Positions 2,312-45,469 of a stretch of DNA of 64,000 nucleotides are shown one piece after another. Positions within the stretch are counted from its first letter, which is position 1. Every line of letters starts with the position of its first letter. This DNA comes from a virus (lineage: Duplodnaviria > Caudoviricetes), in the IMG/VR virus record IMGVR_UViG_3300028886_000045. The stretch is one strand, 5' to 3'. Under the pieces are notes generated by a model, which searched no databases, had not been told where the DNA came from, and saw only the letters and a program-made list of their open reading frames with translations. The translations under genes were made by a program, and so were the position numbers.

Positions 2312-2337
2312 GGTCTTGTTATCCCCTTGACCTTGGG
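2312..2337 (-). ncRNA. Conserved 5'-leader H-type pseudoknot, copy 1 of 14 (others start at 3075, 7704, 8653, 9028, 9345, 10975, 11565, 12337, 15491, 18318, 18635, 22265, 45151)
   Basis: 26-nt core with two crossing stems that both covary, 8-10 nt upstream of AUG. Confidence 0.8.
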
Positions 2338-2371
2338 TTTTAATATTTAACTTTGTTTCTTAATTACATTG

Positions 2372-2420
2372 CAAAGGTAGTAATAAATTTTGAATTATGC
2401 AAATTTTTTACCAACTTTTT
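2372..2420 (-). promoter_or_regulatory. Bacteroidetes primary-sigma promoter, representative of 28 minus-strand copies
   Basis: TTTG-N20-TACCTTTG with an upstream AAAAAGTTGGTAAAA extension; -7 boxes at 2372, 3132, 4609, 5256, 7758, 8168, 9403, 11035, 12396, 13770, 15551, 18699, 22324, 22558, 22795, 23267, 23434, 26918, 33881, 37545, 39771, 45211, 48355, 53639, 56231, 58926, 62828, 63571. Confidence 0.9.
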
Positions 2421-2445
2421 TTGTATATAGTGCATCTTTTTTTAC

Positions 2446-2469
2446 TTTTGTCATGTAGGGATGGCAAAA
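2446..2469. promoter_or_regulatory. Repeated 24-bp palindromic site TTTTGYNAT-N6-ATNRCAAAA (10 copies)
   Basis: Copies at 2446, 5362, 8252, 11109, 12502, 15625, 18773, 22398, 23508, 33955, each just upstream of a promoter. Confidence 0.7.
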
Positions 2470-2837
2470 CGCTATAATCCCCCTACGTTCCTATGTGCCG
2501 ACACAAAAACGCACAAACGAAAACAACCCACCACGAAACGTAGTAGGTTGCATTCTATCTTATGGCATTTATACTAACTTATCTTTGCCCACACATCACC
2601 GCTACCAATCAGATAACGCTTGATGTTCTGTAACTGCTGAACGCTGAATATCAAAGGTTCTTTGCCCTCATCCACGCGCTTGTAGTCGTTTTCCATTTCC
2701 CATAGTGGTGACAGACTACCAAAAAGCCTTCTTGCTTTCACAATAGGTATTGCAACACACAATTTCAGTTTAAGATACTTGCTTGTTAAAAGTATCATCG
2801 TAAGTTCATTCTCCATATCCTTGCAGTCTTAAAGGTA

Positions 2838-3065
2838 TTACTTAGCCATATACACGCTTTTGGGTATTGGCTTCCAAGCGAATGCGCTATGAAAACCGCA
2901 ATCGTTAAGTTTCTTACCCTCATGGTTCTCGATATTCTTAACATACCTTCTCCAAGTGTTTTCTACGAACTTGTACATCTGTGGATGGCGTTGCCAAGAA
3001 TTTGAGTTGATAAGCCACTCTTGTATTCTGTTTCTTTGTTCTGTAAGTCTCTTGATGCACTTCAT
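2838..3065 (-). CDS. Hypothetical protein with promoter and pseudoknot leader
   Basis: ORF track; leader at 3075-3100. Confidence 0.75.
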   Translation of the reverse strand: MKCIKRLTEQRNRIQEWLINSNSWQRHPQMYKFVENTWRRYVKNIENHEGKKLNDCGFHSAFAWKPIPKSVYMAK

Positions 3066-3392
3066 AAAAATTGTGGTCTTGTTATGCCCTCGACCGTGGG
3101 TAAAAATTAAACTTGTTTCTTAATTACAATGCAAAGGTACTAATAATTTTTGAAACCGCCAAATTTTTCACCAACTTTTTTTGTATAAAGCCGAAATTTT
3201 AACACTCTGCAAAGAAAAGTAGGTACGGATAATCCGTTTCCCTTATAAGAAAGGTAGGCAAACACGACAAAAACTTTATACTTTGTGATATTGCAAGAAA
3301 ATAACTTTATGAAATTCTAAAAAGACGCGATTTTATAAAGTTTTTGGGTCTGTTTCTCTGAAATACCGCAAAAGAATAAAGTTTCCCAATAT

Positions 3393-3512
3393 CGTAAAAC
3401 GTAGGATTTCGCGTCAAACCTACGCCCCACCGTAGGATGCAAGCGCACCACGCGCAACCAAACATAAGCGTTTTCGTAAAACGTAGGATTTCACTCCGCA
3501 AAACGTAGGATA
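3393..3512. repeat. AAAACGTAGGAT repeats next to the putative origin
   Basis: cgtaaaacgtaggatttc at about 3393 and 3476, caaaacgtaggat at about 3500, partial copy at about 3431. Confidence 0.7.
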
Positions 3513-3574
3513 TATTCTCCTAATCAAAGAAACTTTGTATGGCTTCTTTATTGCGTCAATTTTCAAATTGACTT

Positions 3575-3750
3575 AACATATACATTAATACATAAATTAA
3601 TATTCTTATTATTATTATATATAATATATATGTGGAGTACCAATTTTTAAGTTTTTAAGTACCAATTTTTAAGTTTTTAAGTACCATTTTTTTAGTCTTT
3701 AAGTACCAATTTTTAAGTTTTTAAGTACCAATTTTTAAGTACCTAATTTT
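3575..3750. repeat. Putative replication origin: AT-rich tract plus 22-bp iterons (AGTACCAATTTTTAAGTTTTTA x4 and partial copies)
   Basis: Units start at 3636, 3658, 3680, 3702 and 3724, directly downstream of the Rep-like ORF. Confidence 0.75.
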
Positions 3751-4426
3751 AAGCATTTGCACATTTTAGTTTCGTATGCCCATTTTTCACAAACTGCGAG
3801 TATTCTCTATCTGCCTTTGTTTCTATATACTGAAAATCCCCTTCCATCCAAAAAGTCGTATTTTCAAGCCTTGTGACATACTTCTTTCCTTCACGTTCTC
3901 TTACGACAAACTTGTTTTTTGTAAGTTCGTTAATATATCGTTTGACATTTCGCTTATCTATACCACTATAAAAAGCCAACTGCTCAACGGTTGAATAGTC
4001 TGCATTGTTATGATTCAAGCAATAAGGCACATACCAAGACAGAAAGATTAATTTACCCCCATGCAGTCCGCTTTTAATTTGCAAAGGAACGAACCCCCCT
4101 TTATAAAAATCTTCTGTCACATAAATCTTATCACCCTTGATATATCCATTTCTTTCCAAGGACTTTTTGGCTTCTATAAGACTGGGTTCTGTTATATTTA
4201 GGCTTTCCATCACCTTTGCATTTGTGATACGCATCATTTCCCTATTAGGGTTAGTACCCAAATCATCATTCTTCAAAATCTGTAAACCATTGTTATTACA
4301 ACGAGAATCAAAACCAACCTCGTTATAATACACCTTTGAAGCAAAGAAACAATACACCAACTTTGCTACTTCTGTTAAGCAATTAAACTCCTTGCTTAAA
4401 ATCTTTCTGTATAAAACCGCTTGCAT
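3749..4426 (-). CDS. Putative replication initiator / tandem winged-HTH protein
   Basis: Two HTH-like segments (NAKVMESLNITEPSLIEAKKSLERNGYI; VEQLAFYSGIDKRNVKRYINELTKNKFV), next to the iterons. Confidence 0.6.
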   Translation of the reverse strand: MQAVLYRKILSKEFNCLTEVAKLVYCFFASKVYYNEVGFDSRCNNNGLQILKNDDLGTNPNREMMRITNAKVMESLNITEPSLIEAKKSLERNGYIKGDKIYVTEDFYKGGFVPLQIKSGLHGGKLIFLSWYVPYCLNHNNADYSTVEQLAFYSGIDKRNVKRYINELTKNKFVVREREGKKYVTRLENTTFWMEGDFQYIETKADREYSQFVKNGHTKLKCANA

Positions 4427-4744
4427 ATTCTATATATAAATCTATTTTTCTATTCTATTTTTTCAGAGAGGAGAAACGTGCGCCCCTTTCTGTGTTTTGC
4501 AACAAACATCTACGAATAGAATGTTTTACACATCAAGAAAGCACACGTCTATAAATAGATTTTATATAGAAAATGCCTTTTTATTATCCGTAAATGTTTG
4601 TTGCGGTGCAAAGATACAAAACATTTCGGATATATGCAAATGTTTTACCAACTTTTTTGTGAAGAGAAAGGACGCGCACACCATAGGCATACGCGCCCCT
4701 ATCATCACAACTTTGCTAAGAATCAAAAGAATATGAAAACATTG

Positions 4745-4816
4745 TGACTACGCTCAGAATCGAACTGAGATTTACTCTTTAGGAGAGAGTCGTTCTATCC
4801 ATTGAACTACACAGCC
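4745..4816 (-). tRNA. tRNA-Arg(CCU)
   Basis: Cloverleaf GGCTGTG/CGTAGTC, D arm GTTC/GAAC, anticodon arm ACTCT-CTCCTAA-AGAGT, T arm CTCAG-TTCGATT-CTGAG; CCA not encoded. Confidence 0.92.
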
Positions 4817-5395
4817 GTTTGTAAGGTGCTTTGGTCAAACCTACAACTCGGATTTATTTACCTACTGACCGCCACACCTTACTATTTGAACACAAAATAG
4901 AATGTTACAAGAAATCCATGTGAATACTGTGGTGTTCGTAAACCTTTCGGTAGATTTCCACCAATGCGTCATAGTAAGACTTGTGCTCCGACTGATAATC
5001 GCCAAGCGTTGATTTAATCTTTACTTTGATACCATCCTTGAATGGCTTACCGCCCTCTGAAAAGTACACCTTGTAAGCAAGGTCTCCCTCGGCTTTGTTG
5101 GGGTAATCCTTATCCACTTCAATGACGATATACGCACTTTCCTTTTTGTCAATACATTGCAAGAACAACTCCAAAAGGTTCTTCTTTGCTTCTGTATCAA
5201 GGATGTTTATTTTCTTTCCATCCATACATCTTAATCGTTATTTGATTTGTTAGTGCAAAGGTACGCATTTTTCTTGAACTATGCAAATTTTCTACCAACT
5301 TTTTACCATTGTTTTATTGCTTTTCTTTTGCTTTTGTTTGCTTGTTATGTTCCTTTGCCGATTTTGCTAACCCTACTTTGCAATCTGATACATAA

Positions 5396-5433
5396 AAAAG
5401 GTGACACACGCCCATCACGGGTTATGCCACCTT
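5396..5433 (-). terminator. Intrinsic terminator with GUGA-containing loop
   Basis: aaggtggcataacccgtgatgggcgtgtgtcaccttttt on the minus strand. Confidence 0.65.
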
Positions 5434-5476
5434 AACCAAAATATGAATATAGTTACTAAAACATGATATAAGAGAG

Positions 5477-6289: not shown

Positions 6290-6629
6290 TTGCCCTTAAA
6301 GTTAAATCCTTTCTGAAAAGCATCACAGAAAACCCCTACAACAGACTGAAAATCCAAGTCTTCACCCTCATTCAGTCCGTACATTTCGCGCAAATAGGTT
6401 ACTGCCTTTTCTTTCAATTTGTCTTGTGGTATTTTCCGATATGTGGAAACCACCTCCCAATCCATGTCCCCATCCTTTGGCTCACCCATGCAGTTATAGG
6501 GAAATGGTATAATATCGTATGGTCGCAATATTTCGTATTCGCCATTTGAGCCTTCCACGAATACACCCATCTGACCATTCTTGAAAAGCAACTTATCACC
6601 CATTTGGGCGTTTATCAATACGTTTCTAT

Positions 6630-7440: not shown

Positions 7441-7695
7441 CTACATATTGAATTTGACCTCCAAGGTAACAAGTTTTTCTATGCCGTTACGCTTACAAGT
7501 CTTTTCTAAAGCCTTTGTCATAGACACAACCTCATCCCATGTCCTTATATGCAATTCAACGCGAAACATATCTTTCTCGCTACTGATAGGCGCAATCTTA
7601 CCTTTATACTCAGTACGATTGTTGATATACTTGCATATCACTTCGATAGCGTTATCTCTATCCTTTGCCTTTGTGTAGTACGTTATGTATAACAT
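7441..7695 (-). CDS. Hypothetical protein with promoter and pseudoknot leader
   Basis: Leader at 7704-7729. Confidence 0.75.
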   Translation of the reverse strand: MLYITYYTKAKDRDNAIEVICKYINNRTEYKGKIAPISSEKDMFRVELHIRTWDEVVSMTKALEKTCKRNGIEKLVTLEVKFNM

Positions 7696-8340
7696 ATTGC
7701 CGTGGCTTTGTTATCCTCTCAGCCGTGAGTTCTAATGTTTGTTTCTTAATTACGATGCAAAGGTACAAAAAAAATCTGATATATGCAAATTTTTTACCAA
7801 CTTTTTTTCAAATTTTATCGTAGTACCTCCCCACCACTTCACCGCTCAGACTAAAGAACTGTCCTTCTTTATATCCCTCAAATCTTAAATCTTTCATACT
7901 TAAAGGGATATAGATAAAACCCCTTTTCTCAACCTTGAATTTCTTAAAATCGGGATAATCGCCTAAGTGTGCCTTTCCAAAGTCATTTGCCTCTTCGATA
8001 GTTGCAAATGTCTTTAATGACATATCACAAACGCGATTATATGCGTTATAGAATGCTACATAATACGGATAGATGGGGGTGTTTGCCATTTTGACAACCG
8101 CTTCACTCCATTCTTTTGCAAAGTCTTTCATTATTACTCCTTTCTTTCTACTTTCTTAATTACAATACAAAGATACTATAAAATTCTGATATATGCAAAC
8201 TTTTTACTAACTTTTTTCAACCCCACTTATAGGAACGTACATATTTCCCCTTTCTGCCATCCATAGATAGCAAAAAGGTGCTTATCATACCGACAAACAC
8301 CTTTTCTAAATAAACCTAAACAATTAATTTAATGAGTATG

Positions 8341-8643
8341 TTAAATCTTTCCGACTGCATGACCGAAAGCAAGTGCAAAGGTAGGATAGAAACCGTTGTC
8401 ATATCCATTTTCAACCTTGAAAGTTGCGAAAAACTTCAAGTTGTTGCTTGGATAGGTAGAAACCGAACCCATGCAAACATCATTCTTATCAAAGAAGATG
8501 TAGCGGTTTTCTTCTTTCTTGATTTTCAAACCCATTTTTTGCGCTTCTGCTACTGCATAACGCTTGTTAATAGCGCATACTGACCCTTCCTTTGAGAAAT
8601 CAGCGTTAAAGCAATTTTCGTGTACTGAATAAGCCTTTACCAT
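8341..8643 (-). CDS. Hypothetical protein (start revised to the ATG at 8643)
   Basis: The track's GTG start lies inside pseudoknot 8653-8679; the ATG is 9 nt downstream of it. Confidence 0.75.
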   Translation of the reverse strand: MVKAYSVHENCFNADFSKEGSVCAINKRYAVAEAQKMGLKIKKEENRYIFFDKNDVCMGSVSTYPSNNLKFFATFKVENGYDNGFYPTFALAFGHAVGKI

Positions 8644-8685
8644 ATCTTTTGTGACCTTGTTATCCACTTGGTCGTGTGGTCTAAA

Positions 8686-9018
8686 TTAAAGTTTTTTTGA
8701 ACATTCGAGGGCGTGTTCAATCATTTTCTCTACCCTTCTGCTTACACCGAAAGATTTCTCCTTCAGATAAACACCGATGATGTTGTCCCTTTCGGTTTCT
8801 GACCAAAAGCCTTGACAAAACCAACCACCAAGGAGTTTCTCATCATGGACTTCGCCACCCCCACGATGACCATTAAAACGCCTTATCTGCTTATGCTGAC
8901 AATCAATCTCAGCAATAGCCTCATCTAATGTCAAACCTTCTGCGATTACATAGTCTTTAAGCATTTCACCATTCTCGCAAAGAAATTCTACTACTGAATA
9001 ATTATTGCCGATATTCAT
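8686..9018 (-). CDS. Hypothetical protein with pseudoknot leader
   Basis: Leader at 9028-9053. Confidence 0.75.
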   Translation of the reverse strand: MNIGNNYSVVEFLCENGEMLKDYVIAEGLTLDEAIAEIDCQHKQIRRFNGHRGGGEVHDEKLLGGWFCQGFWSETERDNIIGVYLKEKSFGVSRRVEKMIEHALECSKKL

Positions 9019-9059
9019 ATCTTTTATGGTCTTTTTATCCCCTTGACCGTGGGTTCTAA

Positions 9060-9335
9060 TTAGATTTCTTCATCGCTGAAAGCCTCAGTCATACAAGTTA
9101 ATTTGTATTCAAAGCCATTACCCTTGATAATCACCTCATGGCAACCGCTCATGTCGTACTTATCAGTATCAACGATTTCTACCTCTTCGTCTAAAAGTGA
9201 AACTAACTTTTCAACAGAGATACCCCAAAAATCCCAAAAACCACTCATTTGTGTTTCTTCGATTATCTCGTTTTCTTCACTTACACCACACAACCAAGAA
9301 AGGTAGTTTCTGAAAGTGCTCTTGATTGATTTCAT
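9060..9335 (-). CDS. Acidic hypothetical protein, near-identical paralog of 18350..18625
   Basis: MKSIKST.RNYLSW.CGV...GFWDFWGISVEKLVSLL. Confidence 0.85.
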   Translation of the reverse strand: MKSIKSTFRNYLSWLCGVSEENEIIEETQMSGFWDFWGISVEKLVSLLDEEVEIVDTDKYDMSGCHEVIIKGNGFEYKLTCMTEAFSDEEI

Positions 9336-9534
9336 ATTCTTTGTGACCTTGTTATTCTCTCGGTCGTGAGTTCTAAATTAACTTTGTTTCTTAATTACAA
9401 TGCAAAGGTACTGCTTTTTCTTGAAATATGCAAATTTTTCACCAACTTTTTTCTGCTTTTGTTGAAATTTTAACATTTCACCCCCATAAATAGCAAAAAA
9501 GATGCCCACAAACCTTGTGAGCACCTTATATATA

Positions 9535-10713: not shown

Positions 10714-10965
10714 TTAATTGTATCTTAAAATGGCTTCTCCTTCTGCCTTGCGAGGACGAACATACAACTTCTGAACAGCAACTTTTGCCATACCTAAATT
10801 ATACTCATAATTCATATCCTTTAAGTGTTCTAACCATTGGATGCCGTACTTCTTCTTATCGCTTTCCCTACGCTTTTCAAACCAAGCGTTAGCCTCTGCC
10901 TCAGACTTGAAAGACTTGTAACTGCTTGACATTCTGTAAGTGTTGAAAATAACGATTTTATACAT
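10714..10965 (-). CDS. Hypothetical protein (start revised to MYKIVIF)
   Basis: The track's N-terminal extension overlaps the promoter and pseudoknot 10975-11000. Confidence 0.75.
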   Translation of the reverse strand: MYKIVIFNTYRMSSSYKSFKSEAEANAWFEKRRESDKKKYGIQWLEHLKDMNYEYNLGMAKVAVQKLYVRPRKAEGEAILRYN

Positions 10966-11238
10966 AATCTTTGTGACCTTGTTATCCTCTCGGTCGTGAG
11001 TTCTAATTTTTATTATTTCTTTCTTTTTACAATGCAAAGGTACGACTTTTTCTTGAATTATGCAAATTTTTTACCAACTTTTTTCAGCCAAATACCAACT
11101 TTTTTCACTTTTGTAATGTAGGGATGACAAAACACAACACCCCCACTACGTTCCTATACCCCACAGACGCAAAAAGGACGGTCTGCACCGCCCTCCTTGG
11201 TTCTGAAATCAATCTTAATGCCTAAAAGAAAAAGTACC

Positions 11239-11556
11239 TTATATTTCCAATTTTTCCATAGTGGTGACAATCTTTTTTTCTGCATCGTAGATAACGACAT
11301 TCATTTTGGCATAGTTTACCAAAGTATCAAAGTTGTCATTCCACATAACTCCTACCCTTCCGATTTTGTGTCCCTCGTGGCGTGTTTCGCAATCAATAAG
11401 GTAACACATCCATTTCTTGAATACTTCCAAATCTTCGTCACAAACCCTATACGAATCTGCAAGCGATATAATGACTAAGTGGTTAGGGTATTTCTGCTTT
11501 AGGGTCTTGTAAACCTTTATTGTGCCCTCCTTGAAAGTCTTATTTAGATGTACCAT
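11239..11556 (-). CDS. Hypothetical protein, weakly MutS-domain-I-like
   Basis: YKTLKQKYPNHLVIISLADSY; pseudoknot leader at 11565-11590. Confidence 0.55.
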   Translation of the reverse strand: MVHLNKTFKEGTIKVYKTLKQKYPNHLVIISLADSYRVCDEDLEVFKKWMCYLIDCETRHEGHKIGRVGVMWNDNFDTLVNYAKMNVVIYDAEKKIVTTMEKLEI

Positions 11557-12012
11557 AATATTGCAACCTTTTTTTGCCCTTGGTCGTGGGTTCTATCTGT
11601 TTAACTTCGTTTTCTGAAAAGTGGGATGGGTGTTACCCCACCCCTTGTTTCCCCTTTCGTAATCAAAAAAACTTATGAAATAAAACATGATACTCACTTG
11701 TAAAAATACACGTTGGCGATTTTCTTTACTAACTTGTACCTATACCCACAGCCTAAAGTGAGTTCGTACACGTTACGCGCCACGGCTTCATCCATATTGT
11801 CAATATCTGTCATGTCATAGACAATAAGATGTTTGGTCATATCTGCTTTCGGCTTCTTTCCGTCTTGCAAGATTATCACCACCGCCACATTTTCGCTTTC
11901 TGAACTTGTGACATCTTCGATATTCGCAAACTGACAATATATAACGCTACCTTGCATAAGAAAATGACTTTACCGTGGTGTCGAGGGCTTAAAGTGAATG
12001 ATTAAGTGACTA

Positions 12013-12327
12013 TTACAAACCCTTCTTGTAAGGCTCGTTTCTAACGTAGATGTCACGCTCTACTGAAAGTCCGAATGAGCCTTTGATAGACTGCAACTCT
12101 GATAGGGTGAAATAACCCATTTCGCTACCCATCTCGTTCTCAACCATACCGAAGAAAGTCCAATCACCGTTCTCCATTTTCTCAGCCTCGAAAACGTACC
12201 AAGTCCAACTTGACCAAGGGGTGAAGAACTTAACAATCACCTTCTTGTCCTTCTGTCCGTCTGTTGAATAAAGAGGTGCTTTCAACAAATCCTTCTCAAC
12301 CTGCTTTGTAACTAACTTCTGCTTCAT
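12013..12327 (-). CDS. DUF2958-family protein
   Basis: LYSTD...VKFFTPWSSWTWYVFE...FFGMV...EMGYFTLSEL...VERD. Confidence 0.8.
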   Translation of the reverse strand: MKQKLVTKQVEKDLLKAPLYSTDGQKDKKVIVKFFTPWSSWTWYVFEAEKMENGDWTFFGMVENEMGSEMGYFTLSELQSIKGSFGLSVERDIYVRNEPYKKGL

Positions 12328-12903
12328 ATTCTTTGTGACCTTGTTATTCTCTTGGTCGTGAGTTCTAAATTGTTTGTTTCTTAATTATTACACTGCAAAG
12401 GTACTACTTTTTTCTGATATTTGCAAGTTTTTTGCCAACTTTTTTCAATATTTTTTTGTATTTTCTTGGTTTTTTCTTGGTATAGTTGGTAAACATACCA
12501 ATTTTGCCATCCCCACATGGCAAAAACGGCACTTTTGGGGTGTTTTTCTGTCTGCCTTATTTGTATATATATAAGGTGTAAAATCGGCACAAAAAAGAAA
12601 CACGCCCCCATTAAAGAAGGCGTGCGGTCTTGTTTATTAGGTGCTCTGTTTCTTTCGTTGCTTCTGCAATACATTTGCAAGCAATATCCGCAAGGTCTTT
12701 TATCATTTGTTCCTTGCTTTCTTCTGACTCTTTAGAATACTTTTCAAATTCGGTCATTATCTGACCTTGTGCAACCCCATCCAAGAAAACCACATATTCC
12801 TTTGCGTTATCCTTTCGTGGCTGTCGCACCCAATCCTTGAACGCCTTTATGTAGTCTTTGGGCGTTTTTATCTCAATCGTGAATTTTATCATTGCTTTTC
12901 GGT

Positions 12904-15154: not shown

Positions 15155-15481
15155 TCATTTCAAGTCCCTACAATATACCATTAACTCGTCCAACCCAAAA
15201 AACGCAAACAATCTAACCAAATCATTCTTGTTTTCTATTGGGCATTTTACCGACCGATACTCATCCATCCTATAAGATGAGCCAACGTGCGACTCTACAA
15301 AGACTTTATCCATATACTGAATAAAGTAAAAGTAATGCCCACAATAAGGCTTTCCAAGCATTGTCTTTTCCCCCTTGCGTGACCTTTCAATATACCAAAA
15401 GTCGTATAATCTGCATAAAGACTTTACCTTTTCTATCCAAAGGTGTTGCTCTGCCTCTTGTTTTATTCTTTCATTATCCAT
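15155..15481 (-). CDS. Hypothetical protein with promoter and pseudoknot leader
   Basis: Leader at 15491-15516. Confidence 0.75.
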   Translation of the reverse strand: MDNERIKQEAEQHLWIEKVKSLCRLYDFWYIERSRKGEKTMLGKPYCGHYFYFIQYMDKVFVESHVGSSYRMDEYRSVKCPIENKNDLVRLFAFFGLDELMVYCRDLK

Positions 15482-16992
15482 AATGGATATGACTTTTTTA
15501 TCCTCTTAGTCGTGAGTTCTGATTATTATTTGTCATTTCTTTTTACAATGCAAAGGTACAAATAAATTTTGTATTTTGCAAGTTTTTTGCCAACTTTATT
15601 TGTAATTTGTTGGTATTTCTTTAATTTTATAATGTGTAGATAGCAAAACAGCACTCTTGGGATAACAAAAAACCACGCCCCACATAAAGGCATGGTCTTT
15701 GTTCCGCTTACCCCCTACAATTCGCCAATACTTGCCTCTTCTTCATGATAAAGCATTTTGGCATAATCAAGGAAACGCTTTTTGTTTTCCTCATTCTCCG
15801 CTTCTTTCGCCCAATCAGAAATTATATGCCAATCAGTATAAGGCACTTCCGACATTGCCTTCAAGCGTTCTTTGTCCGTTTTTAGATTCTTGTAGTTCAT
15901 AACTGATTTTACGTTTATTGTTATAGTGTGGATGGTTGTTTTACAATACCCTTTTCCTTTAGCCTTTCTTCCATCACAAAAGGGTCTGTCTCGCTTGCTT
16001 GTGCGCATAGCATGGTAAACAACAAATCCGCTTGACCGCTACTTAATACTAACTTTTTCATTTTATCCCCCTTTCTTAATCGAAAATCGTTTTGAAAACC
16101 TTTATCCCTTTCATATACCCATTTTCACAGACATTCTCTTGTTTCTGCTTCAAAACTACTTCCATAGCGTGTTTATACCCTGCTAAATACGCGCGTTCAA
16201 TCCATTCCAACGATATAAAGTCGTTTTCATTCAGTCCAAACGCACGCTTTCCGTAGTTACGCCCACGCTTCTTTATTTCTTTTGCATTGCTTTTGAGCAT
16301 ATCTCATCCCCCCTCCATAGGTTACAAAATTCATCTGTGTCCGTGCGTATGATTTTACAATCATGGCGCAAAGCACACGTTTTGCATCTGTATGCCACGT
16401 TAGGCGTTGTGTCCATGTATTTCTTCTTAAACCAATCAGAAACGTGTGTTGTAACCTTATCACCATTTGCATAATCGGTTATTGTCACAACCCTACAAAC
16501 AAGGTCTGTACCAAGTGTGAACTCGGTCGTACAACCCTCCTTTGCAACCCCACTTGAAGGTCTTATATCCAACCTATGATAATATACGGCTCTCATAAAG
16601 TCGTTCTTTTTTACTTCTGTCATATTTCTAAAGTATTACAAGTTAAAAACTAAGGTTTCTTAAACTTCGTGGCAAATCCCTTTTGCGTATATCCAAGCCT
16701 AAAATTTCAGCGAATTTTGACTTTCCGACATCCTTTAGGTTCTTTCTGCCTACCTTATCATGCACATTGATAATACGCAAATAACCACTACCGTTCTTGT
16801 AGGTCTTTTTATTGCCAAAGACACCAACCCAACAATAACCCTTTTGACGAAAAGCGAATTTCAAACACAAATCGTTATAACGACTGCTATCATTTTGAAC
16901 ACCTTCATGTCCCTTTGACATTATCGCACAACACAAATCCCAACCCTCTTGAATTGTGTGTACCCTCGTCCTATATCCCCTAAGTCCTTTTA

Positions 16993-18131: not shown

Positions 18132-18308
18132 TCATTTGTTTAGTTTATTTTCTTCATCTTCTATCATCTTTGCAACCTCTTCACAAAGACTATCTATCTT
18201 TTTACGCAATTCTGCCAAATCGCTATGTGCCACCGTTTTGGCACTTGCTACACAAAGACTTGTATAAATCTTTCCAAGCATCATTGCCTTGTGTTCTTGT
18301 CTTGTCAT
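18132..18308 (-). CDS. 58-aa protein absent from the ORF track (MTRQEHKAMMLGKIY...)
   Basis: ATG 9 nt after pseudoknot 18318-18343; stop overlaps the next start (ATGA). Confidence 0.75.
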   Translation of the reverse strand: MTRQEHKAMMLGKIYTSLCVASAKTVAHSDLAELRKKIDSLCEEVAKMIEDEENKLNK

Positions 18309-18349
18309 AACTTCTGTGGTCTTTATATCCCCTTGACCGTGGGTTCTAA

Positions 18350-18625
18350 TTAGATTTCTTCATTACTGAAAGCCTCAACCATTTCTGATAAAACGAACTC
18401 GAAGCCGTTACCCTTGATGATAACCTCATGGCTACCGTCCATATCGTAATTATCAGTAATAACGATTTCAACCTCTTCATTCAAAAGTGAAACCAACTTT
18501 TCTACTGAGATACCCCAAAAATCCCAAAAACCGTACATTTGGATTTCTTCAACTATCTCGTTGTCGCTTTCTACGCCACAATACCAAGAAAGGTAGTTTC
18601 TTAAAGTGCTCTTGATTGATTTCAT
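18350..18625 (-). CDS. Acidic hypothetical protein, paralog of 9060..9335
   Basis: High identity that extends into the flanking leaders. Confidence 0.85.
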   Translation of the reverse strand: MKSIKSTLRNYLSWYCGVESDNEIVEEIQMYGFWDFWGISVEKLVSLLNEEVEIVITDNYDMDGSHEVIIKGNGFEFVLSEMVEAFSNEEI

Positions 18626-20179
18626 ATTCTTTGTGACCTTGTTATTCTCTCGGTCGTGAGTTTTATTTGTTTAATACCTTTGTTTCTTAATCACAATGCA
18701 AAGGTACGAATATTTTTTGAACTTTGCAAATTTTTTGCCAACTTTTTTCATAAAAATACCAACTTTTACCAATTTTGTAATGTGTAGATAGCAAAATAAA
18801 GGGATAATGCAAAAGCACCACCCCTTTTAATGTTTTTCTTCTCCCATCAACACTATCCTCTTATTAAAGTTATCCAACCAATAGTTTACAACAGAATACC
18901 CACCCATACACCCATTCCTATTAAACAAGCGCACCTCTAATGGATATTGCGGATGGCTTTCACACAACTCCTTCAGCCGTTTTGTGTAGAAATCGCTTTC
19001 GTTCCTTTCTTTCGGCTTTATGTATTCTGCAATAGAAGCGTAAACGAATATCACGTCTTCATATATTTTGAATCTGTCACACCTACCGAATGCCAACCAA
19101 CTTATATAAAGGGTCAAAGGGCGCGTTACCACCCCCATAAAGGAACATACGCACATTAAGGGAAACCCCACAATGTAGTACAATGACAACAGAAATCTTC
19201 TTAATACGTTCATGCCTACTTTATTCTGAAACTTGATTTTGAAAAGCCTACGGAATCACGCATATCATAATACGCACTAACCTCCCTTTTGCGATTTGCA
19301 AAAAGTCTATTATCCCTAAACCAAGGGTCTTGCCACGTTTTAGAACTATGGCTAAAATCGCACAGACAATACAAACCGCTACGCCTTGACCCTTTGTTAG
19401 CGTATGGCTTTCTGTGTTCTTTTCCGCTTTCTATCGCCTTGAATAACATTTTGAATCCCCCCAAAGTCTAATGCACAACTATCCCCTATTATCCGCACAT
19501 CTTTCCGCTTCCAATTTTTCATATCGTCTTTGTGCGTCCTTCATCGCGGAATCATACCCACACCTATATCCTATAAGTATGCCTACGAGAACGGCAATCA
19601 TACCGCTCATAACACCCAAAATTAAATATGCTACTGCCATTTTACCAACCTCCTAATTGTTTTATGAATTTATCTACCTTTTCGCACAATGCAACCTCGC
19701 ATTGACTGAATGGACATACTACCTTACAGAAAGCCTCTTGCGCTTTCCATTTATCTATCTTTTCTTGGTCTTGCGCACCTTTCTTGTAGGCTTCCAACAC
19801 AGACGAAACCCCATAGTCTTGTGAACTGTCTGCAAGTGCCACGTTGTACTTTTCGCTTTCTGCCCTATCCTTGATAGGAACATTCATATCCTTTCTTGTT
19901 ATCTTATCCATATCAACGCCTCTAATTTTTCCTTGAACGCCCTATAACTTGCGCACGTCCCCCTTTCCGCACATTCGGCAATTCTATCAATTATTGGGCA
20001 TTCAGCCAAACAATGCGCTTTAAGTGCCTTTTCCATTGCGTCCTTTGCACACTTTTCGTACCCTTGCACATAGGCTTCACGTTTCTTTATCTGCAAATCC
20101 ATCAAAGTGGTGTTTATATCCACTTCTGCATCTGCACCGATAATAGGGTATTTTTCCCTCGCATTCTGTTTTGCTAACT

Positions 20180-21981: not shown

Positions 21982-22254
21982 TTAATCGTTGAATACCAAT
22001 GTTGGCTTTAGTTCTTTGTATGTAAGATGTACCTTACGGCTTGAATACTTTCGGATAACCTTACCAACCACCTCGCCATTCAGCAAAATCTTGGTGTCCT
22101 TAATCCTATATCCTAACTTTAGAACATCGTAAACCTCACAAGGCATTACATTCTTGCTTGCATAGTTGGATTCAAAGCCGTTGAATCTGTTTACCTTATC
22201 TATGCCTTCGCATACATATTGCATTAACGCTTGCTTTACCTTGTTATCTACCAT
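21982..22254 (-). CDS. Hypothetical protein with promoter and pseudoknot leader
   Basis: Leader at 22265-22290. Confidence 0.75.
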   Translation of the reverse strand: MVDNKVKQALMQYVCEGIDKVNRFNGFESNYASKNVMPCEVYDVLKLGYRIKDTKILLNGEVVGKVIRKYSSRKVHLTYKELKPTLVFND

Positions 22255-22424
22255 ATTTATATATGACCTTGTTATTCTCTCGGTCGTGAGTTCTAAAATT
22301 TGTCTTTGTTTTTAATTACAATGCAAAGATACTACATTTTTCTGATATTTGCAAATTTTTTGCCAACTTTTTTCGATAAATTACCAACTTTTACCAATTT
22401 TGTAATCCCAACATGGCAATTACG

Positions 22425-23612
22425 CATAAAAAAACGATGTAATCTTCACAGACTACACCGCTTTCCTTTAATTATATACCACGCTTTTCTCCGCTGAGAA
22501 AAGTAAATTAAAGAACCTATGATTAATTACTATTATATAACTACCTTTTCTTGGTTGCAAAGGTACTGCTTTTTTCTGACACATACAAACTTTCTGCCAA
22601 CTTTTTTTTGATAAAAAAAATTAGGCACTATCCTCTCGGATAATACCTAATCAATTCGACTCCAAATTACGTCTGAAAAAAGAAATATCTTATATTAACT
22701 AAAAACAGTATCTTTCAAAAAGTAAGGGGTATTTATCACAAATACCCCAAACCGCCTAAAATCCTAAATCATGAGTAAAATTCAAATCCCATTGCAAAGA
22801 TACAAACATTTTTTGTATTATGCAAATTTTCTGACAACTTTTTTTCAAAGCGTTTCCAACCGCTTGCAAAAAAAACGATAATCTCTACACGCCCCTTCCG
22901 CGCATACCCTCCCTACCTTTTTTCCGCAACGTGTCAAACAGAATGCATCCTTTGCCCTAAATATCATTTCCTCTATACAATCGCTGAATGTAGGTATGCG
23001 GTTGTTCCTTTCGGTAAACTTTGTGACATACGAGATTTCCCTTTCGGCTTGCTCATCCGTCAAGGCATCACACGCTTTCAGTCGGTTGGCTTCCATTTCT
23101 TCACCACGGAACTTATAGCCATCCTCGTACCCCTTGCGATAAATCTTTTCCTCGCTGTCCTTTCTTTTCAATTCTTCCATATTCTTTCAGATTAAAAATA
23201 TGCGCAACCGCAAAGTGTCACGCATACTAAAATAACATAAAATGACAAAATAGAATAACTTTGGTACAAAGGTACGTTTTTTTTCTGATTTATGCAAATT
23301 TTCTACCAACTTTTTGACACAAAAAAAAAGATGTACATTCTCACGAATATACATCCCTATCGCCTAAATTAATTTTTTAGTGTCATCAAAAAAATTCTAA
23401 AACCTAAATATAAAATTATCTCTATGTCACTTGCAAAGGTACGCTTTTTTATCCTACTATGCAAATTTTTTACCAACTTTCTTTTGTCTGCTACCAACTT
23501 TTACGGATTTTGCTATCTACACATTACAAAAAAAGGTATCTACGCTCACGCGCAAATACCTCCCATTCAATAATTAATGTAACTGTGTAAATCAAAAAAT
23601 CAAAACAAAAGT
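22425..23612 (-). ncRNA. Cluster of putative small RNAs (promoter, U-rich body, GUGA/GAGA-loop hairpin)
   Basis: Four promoters (22558, 22795, 23267, 23434) and five terminator-like hairpins with only one ORF in 1.2 kb. Confidence 0.55.
22845..23180 (-). CDS. Hypothetical protein, paralog of 32711..33169
   Basis: Shared NRL..C...RE......F.E..N..PTFSD.IE. Confidence 0.75.
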   Translation of the reverse strand: MEELKRKDSEEKIYRKGYEDGYKFRGEEMEANRLKACDALTDEQAEREISYVTKFTERNNRIPTFSDCIEEMIFRAKDAFCLTRCGKKVGRVCAEGACRDYRFFCKRLETL

Positions 23613-27277: not shown

Positions 27278-28609
27278 TATTAAAATTTGAACAAACTTAT
27301 CTGTTCGTTATTAACTTCTTGCTTCAACCTACCACTACTTTTTAGGTGGTAAAACCACGTTCATCCATAGTCGGATAGTCCGCAAGCGTAAATTTGGGTG
27401 TACTGCACCCTATTATTCTTAAACCCTCGTCAAGTATATTCAATGCTGCATTGTAGTCCCTTTCAACCACTTCACCACATTGGGAACAAACCCATCGTCT
27501 GTCATTTAATGTGAGGCTTTTGTTGATGTAGCCACAATTATGACACGTTTTACTTGATGGGTAAAACCTATCAACAAACACTATCTTTCGGTTATACCAC
27601 CGTGCCTTGTATTCAAGCATCCTACGAAACTCGCCAAAATTCATTTCACAGATACTTTCAGCAAGGTTGTGGTTTTTAACCATTCCTTTCACGTTCAAGT
27701 CTTCCATACATATGACTTGGTTTTCGTCAATGAGTGAATTACTTACTGCGTGGAGATAGTATTGCTTCCTATCGTTTATCTTCTTATATGTTTTTGCAAG
27801 CCTTATCCTTGCCTTGTTTCTGTTGTTACTTCCTTTTCGTTTCCTTGCCAACTGACATTGTAGCCTCTTAATCTTCTTTGTCTCAGGCTTCTTAAAATGA
27901 AGATTTTTGAATACTTCTCCGTCACTTGTTATCACAAAGTCCTTAATACCTAAATCTATGCCAACGGCAGACTTTGTTTCTTTTACCTTATGCGTCAAAT
28001 CACCGTCAACCAATATTGACAAATAATATTCGCCACATGGTAGTCTTGTTAATGTTGCTTGCTTTATATTGTCGTGATGTTTCTGCAAATACTGAGCATA
28101 TTTCTCATTACATCTGAACTTGACATTTCTTATATTAGCAAGTGAAAGATGATATGTTGTATAGTCGTTACGTTTGGATATTGCACCAAGTTCAAATCTG
28201 CAACTTTGCTTGTTGTCGTGCTTTGACTTGAATTTAGGAAATCCATTATGCTTTTCAAAGAAATTATTGTATGCTGACAACATATCTTTCACGGCTTGTT
28301 TGAGAACCTTTGTATTCTGTTCTCTAAGCCAAATGAAATTATCATCCTTCAATAGTTCGTGATGTACAAACAGCCCAAGCGTAGAAAGGTTTTCCGATTT
28401 ACCGTCATTCTTGTATGATTCAATCTTTCTGTTAAGGCATTGGTTATAGACAACACGGTAGCAACCAAGCAACTTGCTTATCATTGTTGCTTGCTCCTTG
28501 TTTGGATATAATCGTATCTTTACCGCCCTTAACATTGCTTTTGACTTTTATTTCCCTTATTTTACTAAAATGTTCAATTTTGTTCAAATATTTATTTTGC
28601 TATTAAGTA
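27278..28609 (-). mobile_element. Non-autonomous tnpB-only IS element (IS200/IS605 or IS607 group), about 1.33 kb
   Basis: AGTA at both junctions (27274-27277, 28606-28609); TTTGAACAAA inverted near both ends; removal restores a 75-aa ORF. Confidence 0.8.
27342..28535 (-). CDS. tnpB: RNA-guided endonuclease TnpB
   Basis: N-terminal KIRLYPN; RuvC motifs GIDLG, MEDL, RDYNAA; zinc finger CHNC/CSQC. Confidence 0.95.
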   Translation of the reverse strand: MLRAVKIRLYPNKEQATMISKLLGCYRVVYNQCLNRKIESYKNDGKSENLSTLGLFVHHELLKDDNFIWLREQNTKVLKQAVKDMLSAYNNFFEKHNGFPKFKSKHDNKQSCRFELGAISKRNDYTTYHLSLANIRNVKFRCNEKYAQYLQKHHDNIKQATLTRLPCGEYYLSILVDGDLTHKVKETKSAVGIDLGIKDFVITSDGEVFKNLHFKKPETKKIKRLQCQLARKRKGSNNRNKARIRLAKTYKKINDRKQYYLHAVSNSLIDENQVICMEDLNVKGMVKNHNLAESICEMNFGEFRRMLEYKARWYNRKIVFVDRFYPSSKTCHNCGYINKSLTLNDRRWVCSQCGEVVERDYNAALNILDEGLRIIGCSTPKFTLADYPTMDERGFTT

Positions 28610-29885: not shown

Positions 29886-29887
29886 AA

Positions 29888-40623: not shown

Positions 40624-40625
40624 GA

Positions 40626-41063: not shown

Positions 41064-42433
41064 AACTTATCGTTTTTAAGTTTCACTTTACCTCTATTAA
41101 AAGTTGTCTTCAACAAAACTTCTTATTTTTACGCATACTTTATATGCTTCGGCTTGTTCTTTACTTATTCTATCATCAATAGCGGTTGCTTTTATTGCAT
41201 CTTGCAATCTTTCTATCTCCGCTATTAAAGTATCTTTTTCTTCATTTGTCATTGTTTATTCCCCCATTGTTTTATTTTTGCTACCGATACCATACCCTAA
41301 ACAGAAAGGGTTTTTTGGATATTGTTTTTATATTGATTATACTAACTTCAAAATGTATTGATAACCAAGCATTAAAACTTGTGCGACTTGCAAAATCTTT
41401 ATATTCTATCATGCTTTCATACAGATATTACTTTGGTTTTTATGCCTCAACTATTTCCCCAGTTTCAATCACATAGCCTTGTTTGCCACACCTCGGACAT
41501 TCAAGGTCTTTAAGCAAGGTTTTAGTTGGTCTTACCGCCAACCATCTGTACTTGCAATCAATACAAATAACCTCGCTTACTTTGTGTGGTTGATTTTCGT
41601 TTATATCTTTAATCATATTTATTCAATCATTGCTTTTTTAAGGTCATCGACTACTAAATCAGTATCAACCCAAGTTCCTTCATTATCGCGGAATAGATAT
41701 GCTTCATCATAGAGATGTTGCTTTATCCATTCGCAAACCTTATCAATCATTGTTTTATCTGCCCATTCTGCACCCTCTTTGAAACGATGATAGCATTCGT
41801 TCCATTCAACGGGATGTGAATATTGGTCAGCACGATTCTTTGAAGCCTTTTCTCTTTCTTCTTTTCTTTTCATATTTTATCCCCCATCAACTTCTTATTA
41901 TACCAATCTACCCACTTTTGGCGGTCTTGTTTGTAGGTTTCCAATGCAACGACCAAATTTTGATTAAACTCATCCCTTATGGCATATACAATTTCCTTCC
42001 AATCTGCCGTTGTTCTTGTGCGCATAAGGTAATGTTCCCTCCAATAATCGAAGGACTCAACGCATTTGCGATATTCTTCTTGTATTTCTTCTTTTGTCAT
42101 ATCTGCGTATCTTCTTCCATGATTGTGTTCTAAGCGTATGCCCAAAATTTTCCATTATATAGAGCCACCATCCTTTGTCGTAATAAGGCTTTTGCTTCAA
42201 CGCGACATTGGCGCGGTGATACAAACCATAATTCAAGGGAACTTGCGACCATAAGCCATTACGGTTGCAATACCATACCATGCGATTAAGTATTTTATTT
42301 GCTTTTCTTCTTCTCATTTCTATCTTTATAGTTCTTTAATATGATTCTGAAACTATCCATAGCAAATATCTGTTCTTTAATATCGCATTTATTGAATGGT
42401 TTCCCATTTATCTTGCACGACACTAAAGCACCA

Positions 42434-42808
42434 TTATAATCTATTTCTATTTTCACAATATTGCTTTTCTAACACACTTTTCGTTTCATCATAATCGGGC
42501 TTTGGAAATTGGTTTTTCCTTATAATGACACCTTTTATATGTGTCTTTCCGTCAAGGTAGGCATGAACCAATCTGTGAGCACCGTCAACTAACTTGTATT
42601 CTTCATCAAGAATTATAGGATAAGAGTAGTCTGCTTTTAGAACTGACTGCATTTCCCTTGCAAGTTCCTTGAAACTTCCTATATTCCAATAGTTATCTTG
42701 ATTAAGAAAGGTTTCTATGTTGATGTCTTTTTGCGGATTGTCTTTGGTTGCATTCCAAAGTTTAACAACATCCCACGACTTGCCTCCTTTGTAATAATAT
42801 CCGTGCAT
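42434..42808 (-). CDS. ParB/Srx-like N-terminal domain protein
   Basis: YPIILDEEYKLVDGAHRLVHA. Confidence 0.75.
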   Translation of the reverse strand: MHGYYYKGGKSWDVVKLWNATKDNPQKDINIETFLNQDNYWNIGSFKELAREMQSVLKADYSYPIILDEEYKLVDGAHRLVHAYLDGKTHIKGVIIRKNQFPKPDYDETKSVLEKQYCENRNRL

Positions 42809-44808
42809 ACATTATATCTTCATTGCTTTTTTGAGGTCACTTATTAACGAATTACTATCAAACCAAGTACCTTCTTGATTTCTGATTAGATATGCTTCAC
42901 TATGTTGGTATATCCAATTACAAACCTCATCGATTATCAGATTTCTCCCTTCGTCTTTACCTACAAGGAAGCCCCCAGTTATAGCATGGGTTATTGCATC
43001 AACTAAAGGTTTATTTAATATAGCAGCACATTGTCTGCTTGTTTCCGCTATTCTTTCTTCTGGTTTCATATCTTTTCTATTTTAAGTCTAACTTCTTGTG
43101 GCTCTTCATCTTCCCAACTTGGATTAACACCTTTAGGTAGGTCTTTTTCTTCGATTGGCAGAAAACAAACACCCCATTGATATACCCATATACCCATTGT
43201 TTTTATAGGTTTTTGGTCATACAAAAATATTTTACCATTTTTGTCCCTTGCTAACCATGCTTTCATTTCCATAGCAACAGCACATATTTATTTGGGTTTT
43301 TATTCATATCTTTCAAAACGCACTCTGCCTCCTCCTTTGTTTGGAAACGTGTACTTCCATTCCAACTAAAGTAAACTTCAACACTTTCCATTCTCAAAAT
43401 CTTCCAACCCAAATCTTTTACACAATTTGGATAACCGATAATCACAACAGTACCAAGCCTTCTACCTAACCAATTAACCCTATCTATCGTATAGGTTTTA
43501 ACTATCTTTGTTGGCTTTCCGAAAACATTCCATTTGAGAATTTCCGTATGTTCTTTTATCTTTAACCGCATAGTTCTTTTCCGATTAATCCGTATTATCA
43601 AGCATTTCTATAAACAATGCCCCCACGGAAATCCCTTTAGGGAATTTCCTTGAAAGTCACTTGTTACTTCTTTTCTACTACCCCATCCGCATTCACGACA
43701 TACTGACCTATCTTTCCGTTCTCGTCTTGCTTGACGATTTTCAGCCACCAATAATCACCGTAGTGGTCATTTCCGTTTTCCTCACACTTACGCTTGTATT
43801 TCAAAGCGGAATCCACAGCCTCCTTGTAATCCGTGTGCATAGACTTCACCAACGAACTTACACCATCAGTAAAGACAACCACATACATTTCCACGCGACC
43901 CCCCACCGCCTTGATTTTGATAGGCTCACCGCTTTCTGCGCAACGCAAGGTTTCATGCTGACTATACACATTGTTAATGCCTTTTTCCAAAGCAAGAAAA
44001 TGCCTAATATCCCTATAAATAGGATATGACTGCGCAATAAACCTACGTTGGTAATCATTCTCGCATCCATGTCCACTCCAATCGTAGGAATCATAACCGC
44101 CTAAGTTGGGAACAACCAAGTCCTTTGCCCCTTTCAGAAACTTACGCACCTTTCCGAACTTATCAAGCAAAGCCGTGGTGTTGCCCATTATCGTATCGCC
44201 ACTTGCAAAGCGGTGACAGTCTTCCACGCAATCCGCGATTATGCGTAATGCACTTTCGGTTACTTCCAATGTGTATTTCTTTTCCATATTATTTCCTTTC
44301 CGCTAAACTGCTGACCTTTTGTAAAAAACGCCTTGTTACGCCCCATGCTTCGCTTGCAGATTGGGGAACAAACCAACTACTTAGTACCCATGCAATACCA
44401 TTGTACGCAATCAGTAACAAAGCCAACAAAGCCAATACGACCAAGGCGATGATGTTTCTTAATTCTTTCATGCAACTATTCCGTTTCGTCTGCCCAATCT
44501 GCTTTTTCTGCGAGATAATCAGCAAACCAAAGAATGAAACTTACCAAAACCATTTTGTGTGACTGCCTTTTCTTTTTGCAGTATATCACCTTACCGAATA
44601 ATAGCATACCCACCATATCAATAAAGTTACTGACTACCGTGAATATCATACACGCGATAAAAGCCACAACAAATGAAACCGCATAAACAACCAACCATAG
44701 GATGTTTAGCATTAAACGCTTTAACTGACCTAACATTTCTTTTCTTTTCTAAATAGGGGATGCAATGCCACCAACGACACCCCATCCCCTTACATTATGT
44801 ATAGCACT

Positions 44809-45141
44809 TTAGAATCTATCCAAGTACATTGTGTAGTACATCTTACACTTTTTACAGATGATTTCCAAGGCTTCTTCAACCGACTTGCAATCGTGCCAAT
44901 ATCCACGACTTGAAGAAACGACTGCCTTTGTATCGTTGTCAAACATCTCACCGTCTGCTGAGAAATCCACCATATAGTAAAAGTAATCCCCACCGTTTCT
45001 TATTACGCTGAGTTCTTTTGGGTTCTCTATTTCGATAACCAAGCGACACTCGAAACGCTTTGCCCAACACTTATCAAAAAGTGCCTGTAACTTCTGTTTG
45101 TTACTTTCGTTCATGCGGTGGTATGGATGATTATTTGCCAT
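44809..45141 (-). CDS. Hypothetical protein (start revised to MANNHPY)
   Basis: The track's GTG start lies inside pseudoknot 45151-45177. Confidence 0.75.
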   Translation of the reverse strand: MANNHPYHRMNESNKQKLQALFDKCWAKRFECRLVIEIENPKELSVIRNGGDYFYYMVDFSADGEMFDNDTKAVVSSSRGYWHDCKSVEEALEIICKKCKMYYTMYLDRF

Positions 45142-45469
45142 ATTTCTTGTGACCTTTTTATCCACTTAGTCATGTGGTCTTATTTTTACCTTTATCTCTT
45201 AATTACAATGCAAAGGTAGTCATTTTTTTTGAAATATGCAAATTTTTTACCAACTTTTTTCGCCTTTTACCAAAATTTTAACACTTTCGGTTAAAGATAT
45301 GCGTCTTTATGCCAAAGACATTCAGCAAGTGAAGCCAATCCATACCTTGCGCCACCCAATAAGGTTACATCTTTCCACTTATTCCAAAAATGCTTTCGGT
45401 ACTGCATATAATAGGTGGCATCATTCCTTAACACACGGAAATGTAAACTTCTGTAAACAATCTTTTCCA

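Follow-up and report, generated by a model that had tools for sequence, protein, structure and literature searches.

A small covarying RNA pseudoknot repeated before early start codons in a Bacteroidota phage

What does a phage gain from placing the same small RNA pseudoknot ahead of one start codon after another? The question is raised by the tailed-phage record IMGVR_UViG_3300028886_000045, of which we analyzed a 64,000-nt stretch (hereafter, the window; the minus strand of genome bases 18343-82342) together with the 178,667-bp IMG/VR genome to which it belongs (CheckV completeness 96%; both termini repeat each other). Its genes lie almost all on a single strand, the minus strand of the window. 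The first-pass annotation had described fourteen copies of an H-type pseudoknot in the window, each 8-10 nt before a start codon, and had proposed that they serve or regulate translation, with ligand binding or the blocking of a nuclease as further possibilities. The host is a Bacteroidota; the closest named relatives of the portal protein belong to phages of Bacteroides, Riemerella, Cellulophaga and Porphyromonas, and a repeated promoter carries the Bacteroidota-type boxes TTTG (-33) and TAnnTTTG (-7). The locus bears on two questions, namely how mRNAs are selected in Bacteroidota, in which the anti-Shine-Dalgarno (anti-SD) sequence is hidden, and how ribosomes are captured by phages of abundant gut and rumen bacteria. 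We found that the fold of the knot is under selection, that it acts on the sense RNA, that it moves with the start codon, and that it is limited to early transcription units.

The pseudoknot and its compensatory changes

A structural scan of the genome found 28 copies of the knot on the coding strand and none on the opposite strand. A covariance model built from the copies retrieved exactly those 28, at 43-62 bits, the runner-up match reaching 10 bits. They are dispersed across 150 kb, each ahead of a different gene. The core is 26 nt in every copy, with no variation in length, and has the layout S1(3)-AC-S2(4)-RA-S1'(3)-NAUAACAA-S2'(4), followed by 8-10 nt and the AUG; S1/S1' and S2/S2' are the arms of stems 1 and 2, and the segments between them are loops 1 to 3 (L1-L3). 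S1 reads C-N-C and S1' reads G-N-G, S2 reads G-R-Y-Y, L1 is AC or, rarely, AU or AA, and L2 is RA. L3 is an A-rich loop of 8 nt (NAUAACAA, with variants), and the loop bases are nearly invariant. ACA occurs within L3 (AUAACAA) in 19 of the 28 copies, and in many copies the spacer sequence ACAAAG supplies a second one. The fourteen copies reported earlier were recovered by the scan at their places on the minus strand of the window; the reported tally of S1/S1' (CUC/GAG in seven, CCC/GGG in five, CAC/GUG in two) is exact, and all S2 forms that had been listed are present, including those with wobble pairs. The range given for them, 2312-45177, is correct at its start, whereas its end lies one base 5' of S1 (the core ends at 45176).

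Covariation statistics were calculated from 36 sequences, 32 of them distinct. Standard pairs are formed by 99.6% of stem cells, compared to 86% in shuffles and 15-46% in slid registers. Double compensatory changes were observed at four of the seven pairs, and the number of double-change cells was 45, against 14 +/- 4.9 in shuffled alignments; none of 500 shuffles reached 45. A mutual-information scan of all 325 column pairs, which uses no model of the fold, placed the pairs 2-13, 8-24 and 7-25 at the top. A strict search pattern for the loop and flanks matched 53 sequences in JGI metagenomes and 39 in 185,579 species genomes, none of them genuine, and only 2 of these 92 chance matches pair in both stems. 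The G-U wobbles are confined to the sense strand, which shows that the fold is formed in RNA. The loop lengths sterically suit an H-type knot, with 2 nt crossing the deep groove of the 4-bp helix and 8 nt crossing the 3-bp helix. Thus, the earlier description of the element as an H-type RNA pseudoknot is borne out by its sense-strand wobbles, its crossing and covarying helices and its feasible loops. Each helix alone is weak (-0.4 to -3.9 kcal/mol), and folding is likely to depend on a partner or on tertiary contacts.

We extended the comparison to strain relatives, found via the 91-aa and DUF2958 proteins encoded behind knots, in ENA and Logan contigs of 90-188 kb and in fragments; together with this phage they gave 108 knot instances. 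All seven pairs are kept in 107 of the 108 instances, over 13 combinations of S1 and S2. The sole exception is a C-A mismatch in S1, found in one strain in the aberrant copy before the MutS_I-like gene (11565). Stems before orthologous genes can differ and still pair. For example, the knot of the MVKAYSV gene (8653) has CAC with GACC/GGUC here and CUC with GGCU/AGCC in five other contigs. The orthologs of the MYKIVIF gene (knot 10975) form a series of GACC/GGUC, GACU/GGUC and GGCU/GGUC, the last with two wobbles, so that orthologous stems are linked by wobble intermediates: GACC/GGUC > GACU/GGUC > GGCU/GGUC > GGCU/AGCC. To account for the variety of knots, five or more kinds of compensatory change are needed, as are several wobble steps. 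The MKSIKST gene (knot 9345) encodes an identical protein in two strains, one of which has CUC and the other CCC/GGG, and this difference is a patch of four changes in about 330 nt that are otherwise near-identical. The patch indicates gene conversion between knot copies; therefore, the covariation cells should not be counted as independent events.

One decayed knot (CUC AA GCAA ... GAG UAUAAAAU AGUC) lies after an intact early cassette at L259:15095-15118, near genome position 154,090. Its S2 pairing is gone and it scores 8.9 bits; it was left out of the count of 28 and offers a naturally broken control.

Linkage to the start codon and to early transcription units

Over the 108 instances, the spacer between knot and ATG most often measures 9 nt (86 instances), with 14 spacers of 8 nt and 8 of 10 nt, and this length is held while the spacer sequences vary. 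Position -1 is U in 27 of the 28 copies. As had been claimed for the window, an ATG follows each copy at 8-10 nt, and all 28 ATGs are the first of an open reading frame (ORF) with good coding potential. No such constancy is seen relative to the promoter, since the interval between the -7 box and the knot ranges from 34 to 46 nt. A promoter cassette precedes 23 of the 28 copies in the genome and 10 of the 14 in the window. The remaining five are intercistronic, starting either 2-7 nt past a stop codon or behind a hairpin that resembles a terminator; four of them are those named earlier as promoterless (8653, 9028, 11565 and 18318), and they have no TAnnTTTG cassette within 90 nt. Because the promoter distance varies, the AUG distance stays at 8-10 nt and five copies are intercistronic, the knot is tied to the AUG and not to the transcription start, in agreement with the first-pass annotation. 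We regard the RNA-level, initiation-linked nature of the knot as very likely.

The linkage has a practical side, since the knot marks true start codons and small genes and can improve annotation. Two of three start corrections proposed on this basis were confirmed (8341-8667, from GTG to the ATG at 8643; 10714-11037, from TTG to the ATG at 10965), and the third could not be identified. The 58-aa ORF said to have been missed (18132-18308) is real, and gene calls in three strain contigs include it.

Early cassettes are ordered as an A-rich GTTGG element, TTTGCA, TACCTTTG and a leader, GUAAUUAAGAAACAA...UUAGAA. About 20 further early cassettes carry no knot; they drive tRNAs, short units that do not encode a protein, or genes whose leaders are plain and A-rich. 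Knots precede 28 of the approximately 300 coding-strand genes (about 9%), all in early units. The genes they lead encode proteins of 58-203 aa, nearly all of which match neither PHROG nor Pfam, apart from one DUF2958 protein, two proteins in which MutS domain I stands alone, and three that fall in PHROGs of no known function.

With these data, several roles that are not anchored to the AUG can be weighed. The knot could be a DNA-level protein site, an antitermination element acting on RNA polymerase in the manner of HK022 put, or a neutral passenger carried along by a mobile promoter cassette. Most copies (23/28) do lie in a highly repeated cassette, and signs of gene conversion between copies are present; however, a site in duplex DNA is at odds with interleaved arms of 3 and 4 bp whose G-T pairs are confined to the sense strand, the promoter is missing from five copies and the knot from about 20 cassettes, and neutral drift would not have preserved the pairing of 107 of 108 instances across five or more independent kinds of compensatory change. 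The put sites, moreover, consist of two hairpins at a fixed distance after a promoter, unlike the variable -7 distance, the five promoterless copies and the crossing helices seen here. We consider this group of explanations highly improbable. An element for message stability or processing, which would block a 5'-3' exonuclease or an endonuclease or would be a processing site that keeps the downstream cistron intact, accords with a compact knot 5' of each cistron, internal cistrons included. Its distance from the transcript start varies, though, while that from the AUG is fixed, and the stems are weak, unlike those of known exonuclease-resistant knots; such an element is improbable. Because of the link to the AUG, a 5' stabilizer is unlikely and a promoter-anchored role is ruled out.

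Recoding, by frameshift or read-through, was considered and rejected on frame and location. A recoding knot is expected within an ORF or just past one, 5-8 nt beyond a slippery site or stop codon, and the downstream frame continues. The frameshift knots of luteoviruses (beet western yellows virus, BWYV) belong to a 26-28-nt class, with an L1 of 2 nt and an A/C-rich L3 suited to minor-groove triples. The present knot resembles them in size class, L1 and L3, and the intercistronic copies begin 2-7 nt past a stop codon; unlike recoding knots, 23 of the 28 copies are in 5' leaders, after a promoter and without an upstream ORF. At the two intercistronic sites checked (9028 and 18318 in the window) the offset from stop codon to ATG is 44 nt, which is out of frame, and recoding is therefore excluded there.

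Table 1. Knot cores and associated features; positions refer to the window unless an L-prefixed locus is given.
Feature	Position	Strand	S1/S1'	S2/S2'	Downstream ORF	Remarks
Knot core	2312..2337	-	CCC/GGG	GGUC/GACC	101 aa, 2000-2302	L1 = AA; ATG 9 nt downstream; 53 bits
Knot core	3075..3100	-	CCC/GGG	GGUC/GACC	75 aa, 2841-3065	
Knot core	7704..7729	-	CUC/GAG	GGCU/AGCC	84 aa, 7444-7695	8-nt spacer
Intercistronic knot core	8653..8678	-	CAC/GUG	GACC/GGUC	100 aa, 8344-8643	7 nt past upstream stop codon
Intercistronic knot core	9028..9053	-	CCC/GGG	GGUC/GACC	110 aa, 8689-9018	6 nt past upstream stop codon
Knot core after promoter cassette	9345..9370	-	CUC/GAG	GACC/GGUC	91 aa, 9063-9335	
Example early promoter-leader cassette	9371..9450	-				A-rich GTTGG element, TTTGCA (-33), TACCTTTG (-7), A-rich leader ending UUAGAA
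Knot core	10975..11000	-	CUC/GAG	GACC/GGUC	83 aa, 10717-10965	
Most divergent knot core	11565..11590	-	CCC/GGG	GACC/GGUU	105 aa, MutS_I-like, 11242-11556	L3 = CAAAAAAA; no promoter; terminator-like hairpin upstream
Knot core	12337..12362	-	CUC/GAG	GACC/GGUC	104 aa, DUF2958, 12016-12327	
Knot core	15491..15516	-	CUC/GAG	GACU/AGUC	108 aa, 15158-15481	L3 = GAUAAAAA
Intercistronic knot core	18318..18343	-	CCC/GGG	GGUC/GACC	58 aa, 18135-18308	L3 = GAUAUAAA
Knot core	18635..18660	-	CUC/GAG	GACC/GGUC	91 aa, 18353-18625	ORF is a paralog of ORF 9063-9335
Knot core	22265..22290	-	CUC/GAG	GACC/GGUC	90 aa, 21985-22254	10-nt spacer
Knot core	45151..45176	-	CAC/GUG	GACU/GGUC	110 aa, 44812-45141	U-G wobble in S2; L1 = AU
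Terminase	50920-52209	-				
Portal	49013-50467	-				
Major capsid	L257:12318-13403					

Putative docking on the 30S subunit and its alternatives

We favor, with a probability of about 0.4, a putative folded docking element that recruits the 30S subunit or sets its register. The folded knot would act in cis at translation initiation. When the AUG is in the P site, the mRNA exits its channel at about -9, and the S2 helix would then lie at about -10 to -13, which is where, on the 30S platform, an SD/anti-SD helix sits as the mRNA exits. The knot may dock there on bS1 or in the platform cleft, its A- and ACA-rich loop and flanks being the kind of ligand that bS1 binds. Docking would recruit the subunit, set the start-codon register, and favor the early messages of the phage on ribosomes that keep their anti-SD sequestered. 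We favor this reading because the spacing is tight and the position is equivalent to that of an SD sequence; the weakness of the separate stems would also fit a fold that is completed on its partner. In Bacteroidetes ribosomes the anti-SD is hidden under bS21, bS18 and bS6 (PMC7797042), and initiation is tuned by open structure and by upstream A residues (PMC6847099). H-type pseudoknots are bound by ribosomal protein S1 with nanomolar affinity (PMC7708055), S1-selected pseudoknots carry ACA in their loops, and ACAA repeats drive initiation that is independent of SD (PMC3879156).

The position taken by the knot upstream of the ATG is occupied by true SD sequences in other genes of the same phage. 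AGGAGG(G) stands 7-9 nt before the ATG of the late structural genes for terminase, portal and major capsid (Table 1). Strong SD sites were found in 17 of approximately 300 genes, compared to 1.7% at random positions, and none of the 17 has a knot. The phage has three kinds of initiation region. Such sites are unexpected in a phage of Bacteroidota, in view of host ribosomes that hide the anti-SD, and their presence on late genes suggests either stage-specific modes of initiation or the use of ribosomes lacking bS21. Tentatively, the knot might be a cis surrogate for the SD helix, a prokaryotic docking module comparable to an internal ribosome entry site, whose 4-bp helix and A-rich loop would occupy the platform/bS1 site at -10, with late genes then switching to AGGAGG. 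If this were true, the phage would have two modes of ribosome entry by stage, perhaps with remodeling of ribosomes during infection.

We searched for the knot outside this lineage. Rfam has no family that matches it: searches with 24 kb and with a 76-nt slice, at the gathering score and at E up to 10, found only two tRNAs, so that the Rfam comparison proposed by the first-pass annotation leaves the knot without a known family. The covariance-model search proposed at the same time yielded the 28 genome copies and no match in 151 Bacteroidales genomes. In IMG/VR, a loose knot pattern gave chance matches only and the stricter pattern gave none. There was no match by BLAST of the leader against 50,697 GenBank phage records, or by megablast of 6 kb of the window. 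Relatives by terminase (64% identity; gut phages of 30-60 kb; 1.47 Mb scanned) have no such knot, and a scan of IMG/VR for the promoter cassette returned one unrelated conserved locus only. Therefore, the knot is an uncatalogued RNA family of the leader-pseudoknot kind, and probably represents a novel means of controlling or boosting translation.

Several points weigh against docking on the ribosome. About 270 genes have no knot, some of them behind the same promoter and leader, which makes the knot dispensable for translation in the phage. The most highly expressed late genes lack it as well, a pattern more in keeping with temporal regulation than with general enhancement. A trick played on the conserved ribosome might be expected to be more widespread, and neither host-type genomes nor other phages yielded the knot; its restriction to one lineage would be explained by a partner protein specific to that lineage. 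Finally, the constant spacing could result in part from copying of whole cassettes, given the indications of gene conversion between copies.

Most of these points are accommodated by an operator of a translational regulon, in which a phage RNA-binding protein or nuclease acts on the 28 early messages, blocks the 30S subunit or cuts the leader, and the genes are shut off, or switched on, together. T4 RegA and RegB control early mRNAs post-transcriptionally in this phage-encoded manner (PMC3014915). The knot is limited to early units with host-type promoters and to small orphan reading frames (ORFans) typical of take-over functions, while late genes lack it and use AGGAGG. Its loop bases are nearly invariant, as expected of a protein contact, its weak stems would need a stabilizing partner, it lies inside the 30S footprint, and its occurrence in one phage species cluster only suggests a partner specific to the lineage. 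On the other hand, spacing held to +/- 1 nt is not needed for steric repression, and no candidate protein was found. Pfam searches of the genome revealed no bS21 or S1-domain homologue, although one could be hidden among the ORFans, and no RegA homologue, the latter being a weak negative since the RegA control matched nowhere. We regard the operator as possible, if doubtful, and as not far behind docking in probability. If it were true, there would be a large post-transcriptional early regulon, and an RNA-binding protein not yet known would be predicted.

A partner of another type would be a small ligand, i.e., the knot could be a riboswitch through which a metabolite or a phage-made molecule gates the early regulon. 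The preQ1-I aptamer is an H-type knot of about 30 nt with a 5-bp P1, a 2-nt L1, a 4-bp P2, an L2 of 4-6 nt carrying a conserved C that pairs with preQ1, and an 8-nt A-rich L3, the 3' strand of P2 being next to the ribosome-binding site (RBS). The present layout of 3-2-4-2-3-8-4, with its A-rich L3 and with helix 2 near the start, is close to that of preQ1-I (RF00522) in topology and loop lengths, a likeness that we treat as a lead only, and the weak fold suggests completion by a ligand. However, the knot has no match to a covariance model in Rfam, even in the 76-nt search at E up to 10; in none of the 108 instances does its S1 depart from 3 bp, and GA and AA are the only forms of L2, without the conserved pocket C. 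The 28 copies in one genome are unlike known riboswitches, and they precede unrelated ORFans, DUF2958 and MutS_I genes in a genome that has no queuosine genes (neither QueC nor TGT was found). A riboswitch is decidedly improbable.

Two further candidates were tried and rejected. A trans-acting RNA partner was dismissed upon finding that UUGUUAU is absent from the neighboring promoter-driven non-coding units. The likeness of UAACAAGGU (L3 and S2' in the commonest variant) to the universal 16S rRNA segment under primer 1492R is attributable to chance, given that S2' is free to covary and that the constant part amounts to no more than a 6-mer.

Related systems and neighboring features

In architecture, the knot is closest to the preQ1-I aptamer and the luteoviral frameshift knots, and it fails the membership features of both. 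In genomic behavior, it is closest to the Start-Associated Sequences (SAS/ESAS) of Cluster K mycobacteriophages, likewise short repeats in one orientation before the starts of many unrelated non-structural genes (PMC3203893). SAS prefers ATG, is absent from the host genome, is conserved in related phages, and is thought to concern translation initiation; it is, however, a linear 13-bp motif, GGGATAGGAGCCC, with the SD core AGGAG, located 3-7 bp before the start and without support for an RNA hairpin (PMC3203893). The knot, unlike SAS, has a different sequence and no SD core, lies 8-10 nt from the ATG, and has two crossing helices proven by covariation.

In proposed action, the closest systems are S1-dependent leader knots, such as the tisB standby element, or the controls of T4 early mRNAs. 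The knot of T4 gene 32 is a single-copy nucleation site tens of nucleotides upstream of the RBS, through which the encoded ssDNA-binding protein regulates its own synthesis, and the RegA and RegB sites are unstructured sequence motifs. The T4/RB69 gene 32 operator and RegA/RegB (PMC3014915) share with the present case a phage leader pseudoknot or an RBS-linked signal common to many early messages; 28 dispersed copies at 8-10 nt before unrelated genes set the knot apart from the gene 32 operator. Knots that bind E. coli S1, namely the ligands obtained by SELEX and the tisB standby (PMC7708055, PMC3879156), are H-type leader knots with ACA in their loops, and the proposed route is the same, i.e., loading of the 30S subunit through bS1 without SD pairing (the binding of bS1 is putative here). 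The tisB element is present once, about 100 nt from a sequestered RBS, in contrast to 28 copies at 8-10 nt from an open AUG. Type III antitoxin RNAs of the ToxI kind are tandem repeats of about 36 nt beside a toxin endoribonuclease gene, unlike knots dispersed over 150 kb. What is distinctive is the 28-fold use, the position at -10, and a host that largely does without SD, the function itself being putative. The knot provides a small, mutable handle for tests of initiation, placed where the SD helix would lie, and if recruitment of ribosomes is its role, it would constitute a novel type of initiation signal and, in the engineering of Bacteroides, a portable part for expression.

Several other features of the genome were observed. 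A unit of two genes (promoter and knot before the 91-aa gene, then an intercistronic knot before the second gene) is duplicated on the minus strand, as 9063-9335 with 8689-9018 and as 18353-18625 with 18135-18308; the first genes are 79% identical, and the second genes differ. Two classes of promoters are present genome-wide: about 45 early cassettes (A-rich GTTGG, TTTGCA at -33 and TACCTTTG at -7) and units with the -7 box only, which include those before large tail and structural genes (for example, upstream of L258:11644). Beside three knot-bearing promoters, L257:312-1301 (+) encodes a 330-aa protein with HTH_17 and an RNA polymerase alpha C-terminal domain (Pfam E 1.8e-15), which may act on the A-rich upstream element of early promoters. 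A 347-aa protein with several HTH or sigma-70 region 4-like domains, L255:10932-11972 (+), is a candidate for a phage transcription factor acting on promoters with the -7 box only.

Four early-type promoters stand in tandem on the minus strand at about 22330-23440 of the window (genome 58902-60012), and at least two of them lead short units without an ORF. These units share a UUUAGGWUUUAG motif, and one ends in a GC hairpin and a U run. We regard them as candidate small RNAs of the phage; Rfam has no match to any of them. Two tRNA genes on the minus strand (window 4745-4816 and 62745-62818) are each under an early-type promoter. A helicase (ResIII/Helicase_C; L255:5962-8181, +) is split by an intein that has a Hint domain and a LAGLIDADG homing-endonuclease domain, and a TnpB/Cas12f-like protein (HTH_OrfB_IS605, OrfB_IS605, Cas12f1-like TNB) is encoded at 27342-28535 on the minus strand of the window.

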